Positions 31,778-46,830 of a stretch of DNA of 64,000 bases are shown piece by piece; the first letter of the stretch is position 1, and each line of letters begins with the position of its first letter. The stretch comes from a bacterium (GTDB lineage Bacteria; Joyebacterota; Joyebacteria; Joyebacterales; Joyebacteraceae). The stretch spans positions 205,560 through 269,559 of the forward strand of contig JALGZD010000219.1 of assembly GCA_025782395.1 (NCBI GenBank), given 5' to 3'. Below the pieces are notes generated by a model. It was not told the origin of the DNA. It did no database searches and worked only from the letters and a program-made list of their open reading frames with translations. The position numbers and the translations under genes were made by a program.

Positions 31778-34606
31778 CTACTTCAAAAGCAGCATCCTCT
31801 TCACCAGCACACCGTCACCCGTCTCGAGCCTGTAGAAGTAGACTCCGGAGGCGACGCGCTCACCGTCGTCAGCGCATCCATCCCAAGGTGTGGTGTGGCG
31901 TCCCGCCGACTTCATCGCCGCCCGCTCAAGCGTCCGGACGACTCGACCGCTGAGATCGTGCACGATAAGTGTCACATTCATCGGGTCGGGAAGCTCGTAC
32001 TGGATGAGTGTCACGGGATTGAACGGGTTCGGGTAGTTCCCGCGAAGTACCGTCTCTCGCGGCAACACGCCATCATCCGGCATCCCCGTCCACGTGCCTT
32101 CGATCACGTGGAGCATCTGGTCGACGGCCACGCCGACGGCCCGCTCCGTGATGCCTGATGGCCACAGGATCTCGAGCGTGTCGACGGTTGCCGTCGCCCC
32201 GAGGCCGAATTCAACTGGAAGCGAGCTCTGACTCATGTAGCCTGAACCGCCGGAGACCTCACGGATCTGTGAGATCCCTCCCGCGACCACCCTCACGCGC
32301 GCGCCTATCGCCGATGCGTTCGAGATGGTCCCTGTCAGCTCCACGTGCAGCCAATGATTGAAACCACCCGTGCTGTTCTCAAGCAACCTGTTCGCGGACC
32401 CATTCACAATGTGGAGGTCGTCGGTCCCGTCCCCGTTGAAGTCGCCGAACGCGAGACCCCACGTCGTGCGGCTGCAGCTCGCCGGCTTGATCGATGCATC
32501 GAAGAAGCTCCATTCTGGAGCACCCTCATTGCGGTACAGAATATTGGTCTCCCCGTAGCGCCCGACGTACAGATCCAGATCTCCGTCGTTGTCCCAGTCC
32601 GCCCACGCCACGCCGGTCCCGAGCCCTACGCTCCCGAGCGGCGTCGCAGTGGCGTCCACGAAAACGCCGTCGTCGTTGCGGAACAAGCGATCCGCGCTGT
32701 GCAGGTTCGCGATGAAGAGATCGAGATCTCCATCGTTGTCGTAGTCTCCCCAGGCGCACCCGATGGTGCTACCGCCGTCGTTGAGGGGCGCCACCGTCAC
32801 GTCCACGAAAACGCCGTCATCATTGCGGAACAGCCTGTTGGCACTTCCTCTATTGGCGACGTAGAGATCCGGATCGCCGTCGTTGTCGTAGTCCCCCCAG
32901 GCGGCTCCCTGCGAGTAGGCTGAAACGGCTGAAATCGCCCCGCCGACGGTCGTGAACCCCCACGATGGAGGACCTTCGTTTCTGAGAAGAACATTGACCC
33001 CGTTGTTTGCAAGAAAGAGGTCGACGTACCCGTCGAGATCGTAATCCGCCCACGCTACCGTCCAGCAGTCGCCGGCATCGGCGAGTGCGTCTATCGACGC
33101 GTCAATGAAAACGCCGCCTCCTTCATTCCTGAAGAGCTTGTTCGTCCCGTAGGAGGTCCCCACATAGAGATCCAGGTCCCCATCGTTGTCGTAGTCGGCC
33201 CAGGCGACACCGGTGTTGTACCCGGTATCACCAAGTGGAGGGGTTGTCGCATCAACAAAAACCCCGCCATCATTTCGATAGAGACTGCTCGCGGACTCGG
33301 TATCGGACACATAGAGATCGAGATCTCCGTCACCGTCGTAGTCGCCCCAGGCAACTCCTCCGTCCCTTGTGTTGGTTTCGAGAACCGGGTTCATAACCCG
33401 GATCCACGGCGCCTCTTCGCGTGAGATGACGGGGACTACCGTCACGGTCTCGTCACCCTGGAAGCGCATGCAGTTGTTGCTGCCGGCGCAGACCGGCCAG
33501 TCGGCGTTCGCCTGCTCGTAAGCGGCGCACACGGTCCAACCTTGGTCCATGTAGCTGAACAGAGAGGTCTGCCAATTGAGGGAGTAGCTCCAGCACGTGG
33601 CGCACTGCGGTTCCGACATGCCACAGTACCCGACGACGGAGGCGCCTTCTGAAGCGCCCTTGCGGAATTCGTTCGCGAAGGTGCCGTCTCCGACCGAGCA
33701 CATCCCGGCGCAGCTTCCGATGAACGCGAACGGCATCCGGCCATAGTTCTCGATCCACGCTTCAATGTTGTTCGCTGTCGTGTAGTGGATCGACACACCT
33801 CCATCACATCCACTTCCGAAGTAGTCGCTGCCACCGTGTGCAAGTTCATAGAAGAGCGTGACATCGTTGTCCTGGACGTGGCTTCTGACTTCAGCCTCCG
33901 TCGGCCAGATGATCTCCTCTGTGGGGTAGCCCATAGCCTCGAACCAGATCCTGGCGTTGCCTGACCAACTATCCCAGGCCCCGCTGCACGGCCCCTCTTC
34001 CCAAGGCCCTGTCAGCGAAAAACCGGTGGACGGTGGCGGTATCCCCGGACCTACGATGGCGCCTGTGATCGCATCGACCACCGACACCGTGCGGACGCCG
34101 CGGACGCTCACGCTGTGAACGACCCAGCAGGGGTTGGTGGGTGTCGGGTCGAGCGGGAAGACGTCCGATTCCGGAGAGATGACGAAGAGGTCGGTGAAGA
34201 GGATCTCACCCTCGATTACGGCCTCCGCATCGAGATCGGAAAGAGAGAGAGCCGGGAGCCTCGAGGGGAGATCATCGCGCCAGTGGCTCTTGCGGGCCAG
34301 AAGCTCCCCAGTGTGGCGGTCGAATTGGTAGACCACGTAGTCCTTCTCGACGATGGCGCCGTCGAGCATCCGCTGGTGAAAAAGAACAGCCAGATCTTCG
34401 CTGATGGCGATCCCATCGAAATGCCGGCCACCATCCCCGAACCGCTCCAGCAGGGACACCTGTGAAGCAACCGTCCATGGTTCGGCTCCCGTGCACGCCG
34501 GCCCAAGAGCCAGGACCGCCACAACAACAAGAGTGAAGACCAAAAGCGGCGATGTCGCCCGCTGGGGGAACCGATGACCGTCTGATCTCATTTGAGCGTT
34601 CTCCAT
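31778..34606 (-). CDS. Secreted multidomain protein: clan-CD (C25/gingipain-like) peptidase domain plus FG-GAP/VCBS repeats plus ASPIC/UnbV-like domain plus T9SS CTD.
   Basis: His/Cys dyad context (ELAHGGSDYF ... MPFAFIGSCAG) aligns to the gingipain NYTGHGSETAW ... FDVACVNGDF. At least six DYD.DGDLDLYV FG-GAP repeats; ASPIC-like region (IGARVRV...GSGY.SQ). C-terminal YPNPFNPVT...GVYFYRLE...RMLLLK. Confidence 0.6.
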   Translation of the reverse strand: MENAQMRSDGHRFPQRATSPLLVFTLVVVAVLALGPACTGAEPWTVASQVSLLERFGDGGRHFDGIAISEDLAVLFHQRMLDGAIVEKDYVVYQFDRHTGELLARKSHWRDDLPSRLPALSLSDLDAEAVIEGEILFTDLFVISPESDVFPLDPTPTNPCWVVHSVSVRGVRTVSVVDAITGAIVGPGIPPPSTGFSLTGPWEEGPCSGAWDSWSGNARIWFEAMGYPTEEIIWPTEAEVRSHVQDNDVTLFYELAHGGSDYFGSGCDGGVSIHYTTANNIEAWIENYGRMPFAFIGSCAGMCSVGDGTFANEFRKGASEGASVVGYCGMSEPQCATCWSYSLNWQTSLFSYMDQGWTVCAAYEQANADWPVCAGSNNCMRFQGDETVTVVPVISREEAPWIRVMNPVLETNTRDGGVAWGDYDGDGDLDLYVSDTESASSLYRNDGGVFVDATTPPLGDTGYNTGVAWADYDNDGDLDLYVGTSYGTNKLFRNEGGGVFIDASIDALADAGDCWTVAWADYDLDGYVDLFLANNGVNVLLRNEGPPSWGFTTVGGAISAVSAYSQGAAWGDYDNDGDPDLYVANRGSANRLFRNDDGVFVDVTVAPLNDGGSTIGCAWGDYDNDGDLDLFIANLHSADRLFRNDDGVFVDATATPLGSVGLGTGVAWADWDNDGDLDLYVGRYGETNILYRNEGAPEWSFFDASIKPASCSRTTWGLAFGDFNGDGTDDLHIVNGSANRLLENSTGGFNHWLHVELTGTISNASAIGARVRVVAGGISQIREVSGGSGYMSQSSLPVEFGLGATATVDTLEILWPSGITERAVGVAVDQMLHVIEGTWTGMPDDGVLPRETVLRGNYPNPFNPVTLIQYELPDPMNVTLIVHDLSGRVVRTLERAAMKSAGRHTTPWDGCADDGERVASGVYFYRLETGDGVLVKRMLLLK

Positions 34607-34614
34607 CAGGTGTT

Positions 34615-45417: not shown

Positions 45418-46582
45418 TTAGCTTCACTCCTCTTGTGAAAAAGAGAGACAATGCTCGCTCCAGTGCCTCCGATATTGCCCACACCGATGGCGATCGAGCG
45501 AGATCTCGTCAGCTCCAGGATCTTTGAGAACACTTCCTCGGCACTACGTCCGGGCATGTCTACGATCTTCTTCTCCGGAAGGCCGCGCTTCAGGGCTCCG
45601 CTCTTTACCGGATGCGTCAGGCCACCAGTCAAGATGAAGAAGTCGGCCTCGATATCCTCGGCGATAATCTCGCCGAACTGGAACGCTCGATCGGGTCTGT
45701 CAGCCCGCATACTCACAATCCCGATCACGGTTCTGTCGGGGACGGCTCTGGGGGCGACCATGTTCCAGGCCGCCTTCGTGGACTCCTTGTCGTTAGCGGC
45801 GAAGGCGTTGACGAATTCTATCTCCTTGCCCGCCTCCTGTACTCTCTGGATCGTGAGAGCCCCCATGTCGGGGGTCACGCCCCTCATGCCCTCAAGGGCG
45901 ACATCTTGCGGCACACCGACGTGCTTGCAGACCGCCAGCGCAAGCGCCACGTTCTCGCGGTGCTCTATGTACCTGAACCCCCGGGCAATGCCATCGTCGT
46001 AGTCCGACTCGTGGATCTCGTGATAGACGGATCCGTTCTGCTTCGCGGCGTCACGGATTACACCGCCCCGGACGTGCTCAGCGGTGAAGATGACTTGACC
46101 ATCCGGAACGGTGCCGGAGAGAGCGATTGCAACATCGTCCGCGGTCGGTCCCATGACATCGAGATGATCGGGCCGTGCGTTGGTTATGACGCCGATCGTG
46201 GCTCGGACTATTCGATGCTCACTCAGGCGCTGCAGGTCGGGTCTTAAGGCCATGCATTCGATCACGAGTGCACGGGCTCCCTCACGCGCTGCCTGGCTTA
46301 TGACATCAAGCTGTTCGCGGATGTTGGGTGGCCCTGGTCTCGATACAACATCCTCGCTGCCGTCTGGGTGGATGTAGCGCGCCGCGGATCCTGTGGTCTT
46401 GGCAGACGTGCGAATGCCGCCCGCGCGCAGGCCTGCGGCAATCAGTCGCACCACAGATGATTTGCCGCGGGTCCCGTTGACATGGATGCGAATGGGAACC
46501 GCAGCGAGGTTCCTCGTGTGGAAGCGGTACTCGAGAGTGCCGTAGATGAGAAATAAGAACGCAAGTATCAGAACGAAGAACA
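45414..46582 (-). CDS. pgsB: Poly-gamma-glutamate synthase PgsB/CapB (Mur-ligase-like amide ligase).
   Basis: From the internal Met (MFFVLILAFLFLIYGTLE) it is colinear with Bacillus PgsB: IHVNGTRGKSS vs VNINGIRGKST, GPPNIREQ vs GPNIGEQ, ALVIECMA vs AIVSECMA, NARPDHLDVMGPT vs NVLEDHMDVMGPT. The longer track ORF (to 46754) probably over-extends at the N-terminus. Confidence 0.85.
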
Positions 46583-46830
46583 TCCAGCGCCCCGCCCTGG
46601 CTTCAGCCTCGCCGGCCGTCAGTGTGCCGTGGGCCATGGCCGTGCCGGTGGCCCGTAGCCCTGACCCACATAGGGATAGGCCGCCCTCGTCACCATCTCC
46701 TCGCGGCCCAGTCCCTCCCGACGTACGCCGCGCGGACAGATACGAAGCCGGCAACCATTATCGTACCAGAGGCGGGTCGCCACGTCAAGCCTGAGCTCGA
46801 GTTGTGAGACAACCCCCTACCGATACACGC

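Follow-up and report, generated by a model that had tools for sequence, protein, structure and literature searches.

We identified, in a 64,000-nt stretch of DNA from an uncultured diderm bacterium (contig JALGZD010000219.1 of assembly GCA_025782395.1; hereafter the window), a run of minus-strand genes in which the poly-gamma-glutamate (PGA) synthase genes pgsB and pgsC lead into genes for a TIGR04332 family protein, a periplasmic protein (Ndom2), an outer-membrane barrel protein, an LVIVD-repeat lipoprotein and a gingipain-like C25 protein. Hundreds of genomes from the Fibrobacterota-Chlorobiota-Bacteroidota group and neighbouring lineages share this conserved gene set. From the synthase families, gene linkage, localisation signals and predicted folds observed, we propose, with a probability of roughly 0.55, that in two-membrane bacteria the cluster serves to make PGA and to export it through the whole envelope. 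PGA capsules and slimes are understood almost wholly from single-membrane Bacillus, and we know of no described machinery for the passage of PGA across a periplasm and an outer membrane. Two families of the set lack a Pfam or NCBIfam model, and its gingipains form a subfamily whose active site is altered. The set offers a testable candidate route for PGA across the outer membrane.

Homologues of pgsBC occur in most phyla (CapsuleFinder, PMC5542703), and Fusobacterium nucleatum is, according to work cited in PMC4497714, the first Gram-negative PGA producer. The literature that we searched contained nothing on this cluster, on outer-membrane components, on the type IX secretion system (T9SS) together with polyglutamate, or on an Eisenbacteria capsule, and papers beyond that literature may exist. 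Judging from the distribution described below, anaerobic digesters, sediments and gut-related Bacteroidales may commonly contain PGA-like polymers.

The identity of the synthase genes, already assigned in the initial annotation of this DNA, was confirmed by scores well above curated cut-offs of hidden Markov models (HMMs). PgsB (45414-46583; all window features given here lie on the minus strand), an ATP-dependent gamma-glutamyl ligase of the Mur-ligase fold, scored 410.1 bits against the TIGR04012 equivalog cut-off of 222.7, covering profile positions 2-379 of 380; it also matched Mur_ligase_M (PF08245; 36 bits versus 24), and a P-loop, GTRGKSS, can be read in its translation. A start at Met58 of its open reading frame (ORF) gives 389 aa, the same length as its homologues, and moves the annotated start from 46582 to 46583. 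PgsC (44929-45417), the integral-membrane synthase subunit, scored 130.1 bits against 96.45 for the TIGR04011 equivalog and matched CapC (PF14102) at E = 6.6e-34. The product of the third gene (43848-44948) belongs to TIGR04332, "poly-gamma-glutamate system protein" (293.9 bits, cut-off 100). No match to PGA_cap (PF09587) was found among the ten cluster proteins at E ≤ 0.01 or in the third protein at E ≤ 10, the remaining window not having been exhaustively scanned, and the third protein does not show a metallophosphatase-type fold. The reported absence of a PgsA/CapA partner from the cluster was thereby upheld, with the qualification that a known family, TIGR04332, stands where PgsA/CapA would be. 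In its structural model (mean predicted local distance difference test, pLDDT, 88.9), N- and C-terminal transmembrane helices flank an alpha/beta domain, which the positive-inside rule puts, by prediction, in the periplasm.

The cluster shares with the Bacillus PgsBCA(E) and CapBCADE systems equivalog PgsB and PgsC proteins, the order of B, C and a third membrane-anchored protein, and genetic linkage to a polymer-processing enzyme (compare pgdS and capD). It differs in having neither PgsA/CapA (PF09587, metallophosphatase-like fold) nor CapD/GGT, and in adding four conserved periplasmic, outer-membrane or surface genes for which a single-membrane cell has no need. Its first three genes are identical in kind to the three-gene TIGR04332 cassette; the annotated cassette ends there, whereas the window and most related loci go on with Ndom2, barrel, LVIVD and C25. 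Francisella capA carries the annotation "poly-gamma-glutamate system protein" (PMC5362203), and its placement in the family rests on that annotation.

To determine how widely the downstream genes accompany the synthase, we searched for TIGR04332 by word (617 matches) and compared the 80 most similar of at least 580 loci, all retrieved through TIGR04332 alignment, which limits the view. These loci derive from Eisenbacteria, Bacteroidales, Lentimicrobiaceae, Rikenellaceae, Chitinophagales, Ignavibacteriales, Melioribacteraceae, Chlorobi, Gemmatimonadota, Fibrobacteraceae, Zixibacteria, Auribacterota and one bin labelled Chlamydiae. Locus ORFs were stop-to-stop calls, and presence was scored by tblastn and HMM searches with the window proteins. 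In 43 loci the contig extends at least 6.5 kb upstream and at least 8.5 kb downstream; these full-flank loci come from Eisenbacteria, Bacteroidota, Ignavibacteria/Chlorobi-type metagenome-assembled genomes, Gemmatimonadota and Fibrobacteraceae. All 43 contain pgsB and pgsC. Co-occurrence of the other families with pgsBC, the lack of which had been named beforehand as grounds for refutation, was found for Ndom2 in 43, for the barrel in 40 and for LVIVD in 37, and the C25 protein, which lacks the catalytic His, is likewise a conserved member of the set (38/43). Ndom2, the fourth gene, could therefore enter annotation rules for PGA systems on the strength of its presence in every full-flank locus.

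Gene order is conserved as well. The arrangement pgsB-pgsC-TIGR04332-Ndom2-barrel-LVIVD is near-universal among the 80 loci where the contig is long enough, and the median gap between adjacent HMM matches in the core of the full-flank loci is below 20 nt. Three distant Eisenbacterial contigs (barrel identity 45-50%) share the series pgsB-pgsC-TIGR04332-Ndom2-barrel-LVIVD-C25-M14 and differ in their outer flanks, and gene calls made independently on two further contigs were concordant. In Eisenbacteria and three Ignavibacteria/Chlorobi-type loci (L021, L059 and L083), the C25 gene comes after LVIVD; in Bacteroidota, Gemmatimonadota, Fibrobacteraceae and most Ignavibacteria-type loci, it immediately precedes pgsB. 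By this comparison of loci, it has changed side yet remained attached to the cluster. Beyond the block, the genes of L029 are not common to other loci; in L017, L050 and L078, two extra genes after LVIVD are common to about 25-32 loci, and then conservation ends.

These patterns bear on the most conservative explanation, namely that generic envelope and protease genes, abundant in these phyla, were simply inherited alongside pgsBC with no functional tie to it. C25, LVIVD, BNR/Sortilin and T9SS C-terminal proteins are indeed common here, extra C25 copies lie near several loci, and the M14, FG-GAP and M16 genes discussed below are truly lineage-specific. However, order and adjacency hold across phyla at 21-30% identity for Ndom2, barrel and LVIVD with unshared flanks, the C25 gene stays adjacent on either side, and both the fusion gene models described below and the short core gaps speak for a unit, which makes this explanation highly improbable. 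The initial suggestion of an export or anchoring module thus gains from the linkage across phyla and from the fusions, and loses its connection to M14, M16 and FG-GAP proteins beyond Eisenbacteria.

Neither Ndom2 nor the barrel protein belongs to a Pfam or NCBIfam family, the barrel having a sub-threshold EpsL match only. Residues 35-153 at the N-terminus of the barrel protein match the Ndom2 protein (42714-43835, a 373-aa ORF) twice by BLASTP (E = 4e-6 and 3e-5), which bears out the predicted sharing of a homologous domain; as both matches fall within one 373-aa protein, it is a tandem of that domain, two beta-sandwiches, and was named Ndom2 accordingly. Its start is ambiguous (43835, 43751 or 43709), the likely one being Met29 at 43751. 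Ndom2, a predicted periplasmic protein, has a type I signal peptide, and 76 of 78 orthologues lack a lipobox. Orthologues usually measure 299 aa; the window protein additionally carries, at residues ~270-305 in the second domain, a lineage-specific Gly/Ser/Asp/Arg-rich tandem repeat insert (GVRDGSGDSGVRDGSRHSGVGDGSRHSGVGSG) that is absent from the 299-aa orthologues.

Structure prediction for the barrel protein (41228-42730, a 500-aa ORF with a type I signal peptide; pLDDT 88, predicted template modelling score 0.75) revealed a beta-sandwich at residues 32-160 (nt 42251-42637) followed by 14 strands at residues 168-498 (nt 41237-42229). The 14 antiparallel strands and the top structural similarities place it in the OmpG/CymA-like structural class, with CymA, OmpG and FadL as best structural neighbours. 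It differs from CymA and OmpG, which import sugars, in sharing 8% identity and no common family model with them, in its conserved acidic extracellular loops and, in some lineages, in its N-terminal beta-sandwich. Against PgaA, BcsC, AlgE, PelB and Wza, we detected neither sequence-family membership nor a 16-18-strand or Wza-type fold. A crude strand-parity estimate gives a polar lumen with 24 Lys/Arg versus 18 Asp/Glu, no clear sign either for or against polyanion transport, and the loops carry the most conserved motifs of the family (YDxNxxRYSD, GYDExGE..SDDSD, DPxHxGR and KDY). The C-terminus reads ...FLD, not the usual aromatic last residue of outer-membrane barrels.

A barrel profile search of 1.84 billion proteins yielded 896 cluster representatives, mostly of 330-390 aa and matched over the barrel part only, and Ndom on the barrel is therefore a lineage-specific addition. 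Ndom and barrel occur in one protein in 33 cases among the listed barrel-profile matches and Ndom2 homologues, and five of the listed gene models (P0205, P0207, P0219, P0221 and P0242) fuse TIGR04332, with or without Ndom, to the barrel. When P0207 and P0242 were read, a second signal-like segment was found between the TIGR04332 C-terminal helix and the barrel, which makes such a fusion topologically feasible; the five may be true polyproteins or may result from merged gene calls. A word search with the barrel gave homologues that were all Eisenbacterial (45-100% identity), and the named homologues of the unannotated cluster proteins belong to Candidatus Eisenbacteria, which makes that phylum the most likely source of the window. 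The evidence that starts from the barrel side consists of the fusions and the three Eisenbacterial contexts.

The next gene (40117-41283) encodes an LVIVD-repeat beta-propeller lipoprotein, as first annotated: PF08309 scored 110.7 bits against 20.2 (E = 2e-32) over three matched stretches, and a lipobox, ILGGC, is read from the sequence. Orthologues in Bacteroidota and Ignavibacteria also have a lipobox, followed by a conserved C-[GA]-K-P-N-D-P-E-S. The true start probably lies downstream of 41283, for example at TTG 41139, giving MSIAVWIGASLLIAAVLILGGC. Relative to the barrel gene, ATG 41283 would produce a 56-nt overlap, TTG 41235 an 8-nt overlap and TTG 41139 an 88-nt gap.

The C25 protein (36231-40028) resembles gingipains and PorU in having a prodomain (PF08126, 71 bits), a C25 catalytic-fold domain (PF01364, 203 bits; nt 38244-39308), an immunoglobulin-like region (FlgD_ig), a T9SS C-terminal domain (nt 36243-36482) and the catalytic Cys, and its similarity to RgpB is clear (E = 1.8e-30). 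The sorting domain is a borderline prediction, with TIGR04183 at 23.8 bits versus 23. Alignment to RgpB pairs Cys244 with Cys483 and His211 with Trp450, in agreement with the His-to-Trp change noticed initially. This replacement extends to the whole cluster-linked group: in all readable full-length copies (about 60 including second copies), the His position is Trp, Glu or Gln, the gingipain motif NYxGHG reading NYRG[W/E/Q]G, or VYRGWA in L073 and L078. Eisenbacteria, Gemmatimonadota and Fibrobacteraceae have Trp there, Bacteroidota and Ignavibacteria have Glu, and L074 and a second copy in L003 have Gln. Unlike in gingipains, the equivalents of RgpB Glu152 and Asp163 are lost too; Cys483 is invariant across full-length orthologues, and Arg448, Glu498 and a T-H-T motif containing His524 are kept in at least 93% of them. 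On these alignments, the protein would be either a pseudo-enzyme or an enzyme with a relocated catalytic His. Two assignments were rejected, namely the PorU sortase (NF033707, 63.1 bits versus a cut-off of 420) and a canonical gingipain, the catalytic His being replaced.

The C25 fold nevertheless invites another explanation, in which PgsBC-TIGR04332 add gamma-glutamyl chains to T9SS cargo, a lipoprotein or a glycan, with Ndom2, barrel, LVIVD and C25 as substrates or handling proteins. The T9SS sortase PorU has the C25 fold, and Francisella capBCA is required for virulence although the capsule there is independent of capB or capC. Outside Eisenbacteria, moreover, LVIVD is followed by an HGSNAT/DUF1624-type acyltransferase and an unannotated protein, which hints at modification chemistry. 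Set against this are the equivalog-level scores of PgsB and PgsC to the Bacillus enzymes, the PF05908 PGA hydrolases beside the core in three loci, and the distance of the C25 protein from PorU (63 bits where 420 are required); we regard such a conjugation system as quite unlikely.

The gene pair mentioned, which follows LVIVD in about 29 loci, consists of a multi-pass membrane acyltransferase and a second gene of ~280-430 aa without a family (L017 14291-15981; L050 14218-16634; L078 15411-17060); no homologue of either was found in the window.

In the envelope-spanning export system that we favour, the PgsB ligase and PgsC, as their family membership shows, constitute the inner-membrane synthase, with the TIGR04332 protein replacing PgsA/CapA. 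Nascent polymer would enter the periplasm, be passed to soluble Ndom2 and leave through the 14-stranded, CymA/OmpG-like monomeric outer-membrane channel, which would bear a third Ndom copy at its periplasmic N-terminus in Eisenbacteria, Gemmatimonadota and Fibrobacteraceae. The LVIVD beta-propeller lipoprotein could be an additional outer-membrane partner, and the C25 protein, with its gingipain fold, would be carried to the cell surface by type IX secretion and act on or hold the polymer there; in Eisenbacteria, a secreted M14 enzyme may trim the polymer as a lineage-specific extra. The localisation signals agree with this arrangement, comprising signal peptides on Ndom2 and the barrel, the lipobox of the LVIVD protein and the T9SS domain of the C25 protein. 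The direction, export as opposed to uptake or anchoring, is one that we infer. So organised, the cluster would resemble PgaABCD, BcsABC, alginate AlgE/K and PelBC in its proposed combination of synthase, periplasmic adaptor and dedicated outer-membrane barrel in one operon. A more ambitious version is conceivable but doubtful: the cluster would be the first dedicated envelope-spanning polyamide machine in two-membrane bacteria, the Ndom adaptor coupling synthase to channel and the C25 protein (Cys483 with relocated His524) anchoring or tailoring PGA covalently, as an analogue of CapD on an unrelated fold.

Variant loci supply the most direct in-silico tie of the system to PGA. In L067 (Chlorobiaceae, 11917-15187) and L060 (Ignavibacteria, 7652-10606), the genes after pgsB-pgsC-TIGR04332-Ndom2 encode a barrel resembling TonB-dependent receptors (OMP_b-brl_3 plus Plug) and a PF05908 "poly-gamma-glutamate hydrolase" (E ~1e-44). 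In L042 (Bacteroidota), a PF05908 gene (3258-3914, minus strand) adjoins a pgsB-pgsC-TIGR04332-Ndom2 core, with no TonB-receptor-like gene detected on the 5.7-kb contig. None of the 14-strand barrel, LVIVD or C25 was found in the available sequence of these three loci. The PF05908 hydrolases (E = 4e-44) beside the same core in all three lend indirect support to PGA as its presumed product. The gene comparison also shows the outer-membrane barrel plus the polymer-processing enzyme to be an exchangeable slot.

The same variant loci can be read in the opposite direction, as turnover in place of export: PGA or gamma-glutamyl oligomers would be stored in the periplasm or at the surface, the barrel or a TonB-type receptor would reimport them, and C25-like, PghP-like and M14 enzymes would degrade them. 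Uptake is the role of the structural neighbours CymA, OmpG and FadL; in the variant loci, the receptor-like barrel is paired with a PF05908 hydrolase for which no signal peptide is evident and which is apparently cytoplasmic; and in Bacillus, pgdS, which encodes a depolymerase, comes next after the pgs operon (PMC4497714). On the other hand, the fusion of Ndom to the barrel at its periplasmic end, and to TIGR04332 in some gene models, argues for physical coupling to the synthase and not to a catabolic route; no inner-membrane importer is conserved in the cluster; and the C25 protein is predicted to be targeted to the cell surface, not to the periplasm. Turnover accordingly strikes us as unlikely, though it is the foremost rival to export.

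Several observations nevertheless weigh against an export system. Besides the kinship of the barrel with uptake channels, the importer character of a TonB-type receptor and the lack of an obvious signal peptide in the PghP-like enzyme, the extracellular loops of the barrel have a net charge of about -23, unexpected for a polyanion channel. No barrel lies within 5-10 kb of the core in L040, L077, L079, L018 and L085. Francisella capBCA is without an established PGA product, and the capsule there forms independently of capB and capC. In Eisenbacteria, LVIVD-C25-M14 are probably transcribed separately, as the promoter motifs described below suggest, and the retrieval of all loci by way of TIGR04332 narrows the comparison.

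Downstream of the C25 gene lie an M14 carboxypeptidase (34615-36339) and an FG-GAP/ASPIC protein (31778-34606), and a pair of M16 peptidases (48288-50360 and 46831-48243; PF00675 and PF05193) lies upstream of pgsB on the same strand, as had been noted. The M14 identity is secure (PF00246, 155 bits, E = 3.4e-45; also CarboxypepD_reg); the likely start is Met44 (36210), and the protein matches carboxypeptidase T (E = 4e-33), with HxxE kept and LHHAEE aligned to LHHARE. As a conserved member of the system, the M14 enzyme was rejected, full-length homologues being confined to Eisenbacterial loci. The idea of a conserved PGA-trimming enzyme akin to PghP does not hold for this carboxypeptidase-T-like, Eisenbacterial protein outside the PghP family; no cluster protein of the window matches PF05908, tblastn with the PghP-like proteins of L067 and L060 found none in the window, and the window cluster contains no GGT gene. 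The cluster resembles CapD (GGT family), PgdS and PghP (PF05908) systems in coupling a processing enzyme to the synthase, PF05908 itself occurring in the three variant loci, but in the window this role would fall to the His-less C25 protein or the M14 carboxypeptidase-T-like enzyme, neither known for gamma-glutamyl cleavage.

The FG-GAP protein matches PF13517 (E = 1.3e-64) and PF07593, and its first 402 residues have no C25 similarity, contrary to its earlier C25 label. Of the trio of T9SS-sorted peptidases proposed at first, the sorting signal is well supported for the M14 and FG-GAP proteins (TIGR04183, 39.4 and 38.2 bits versus 23) and borderline for C25, and the FG-GAP protein drops out as a C25 peptidase. 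Full-length FG-GAP homologues occur in some Eisenbacterial loci only. The M16 pair is often, not always, upstream in Eisenbacteria: it is missing upstream in L003, other genes intervene before the cluster in L001, L002 and L014, and it is absent in other phyla. By gene content, the M14, FG-GAP and M16 genes are lineage-specific neighbours outside the conserved core. The region has a G+C content of ~60%, and a convergent AddAB-type helicase-nuclease pair bounds the gene block. Spacing as tight as first claimed (gaps or overlaps of 20 nt or less) applies to pgsB/pgsC (4-nt overlap) and pgsC/TIGR04332 (20 nt); the LVIVD-to-C25 gap is 88 nt, and several of the other distances vary with the start codon chosen.

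Two sigma-70-like motifs suggest how the block is transcribed in Eisenbacteria. Before pgsB, at 46760-46788, TTGACG and TACGAT are separated by 17 nt and accompanied by TG (9/12 consensus positions), and TTGAC...TGnTAnnAT occurs at the equivalent position in 11 other Eisenbacterial loci; the element presumably functions as a promoter. Inside the block, at 41207-41235, TTGACT stands 17 nt from TG-n-TATAAT (11/12 consensus positions with TG). This motif straddles the barrel stop, its -35 element coinciding with the Leu-Asp-stop codons, and is matched exactly at 13 of the 16 barrel stops from Eisenbacteria (window, L001-L011 and L016) and absent in other phyla. It is nucleotide-invariant while its flanks diverge. 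It is possible that TTGACT at 41235 is merely a start codon; a promoter is favoured because TG-n-TATAAT is conserved 17 nt downstream and because of this nucleotide invariance. From these motifs, LVIVD-C25-M14 probably have their own promoter in Eisenbacteria. Since no terminator-like site was found at the barrel/LVIVD junction, read-through may also occur.

Between the first promoter motif and pgsB lies a 5′ leader of ~88 nt (46668-46755; GCCGGCUUCG ... GGGAGGG ... CGRRG..CGGC), a candidate structured RNA. It is GC-rich, with a long irregular stem, an invariant GGGAGGG and a U-rich tract 3′ of the stem. In an alignment of 12 Eisenbacterial loci, the outer helix is present in 12/12, with compensatory change in three pairs; automatic consensus folding of the trimmed alignment gave a poor structure. 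No Rfam family matched at E ≤ 1, and the leader was rejected as a known riboswitch on that account. A covariance model found no second copy in the window or in the other phyla searched. The leader may be an attenuator or riboswitch-like element.

Several further neighbours were recorded. In L040 (8478-13036, an Auribacterota bin) and L077 (12002-16195, the bin labelled Chlamydiae), a PtsN-like EIIA gene comes after the four-gene core, and the glutamine-synthetase adenylyltransferase gene GlnE lies further downstream, Pfam-confirmed in L077 and recognised from N-terminal sequence in L040; both are nitrogen-regulation genes, with no outer-membrane component nearby. Sortilin/BNR-type beta-propellers with a T9SS or dockerin tail recur beside the cluster in several phyla (L017 1741-4260; L029 15401-17683; L080 13143-17498; L084 6150-8333). 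In the window, further genes for secreted proteins precede the M16 pair on the minus strand: a short ORF partly matching subtilase (S8; 50761-51624) and a gene for a 583-aa protein with a FlgD_ig-type C-terminal domain (51668-53419).

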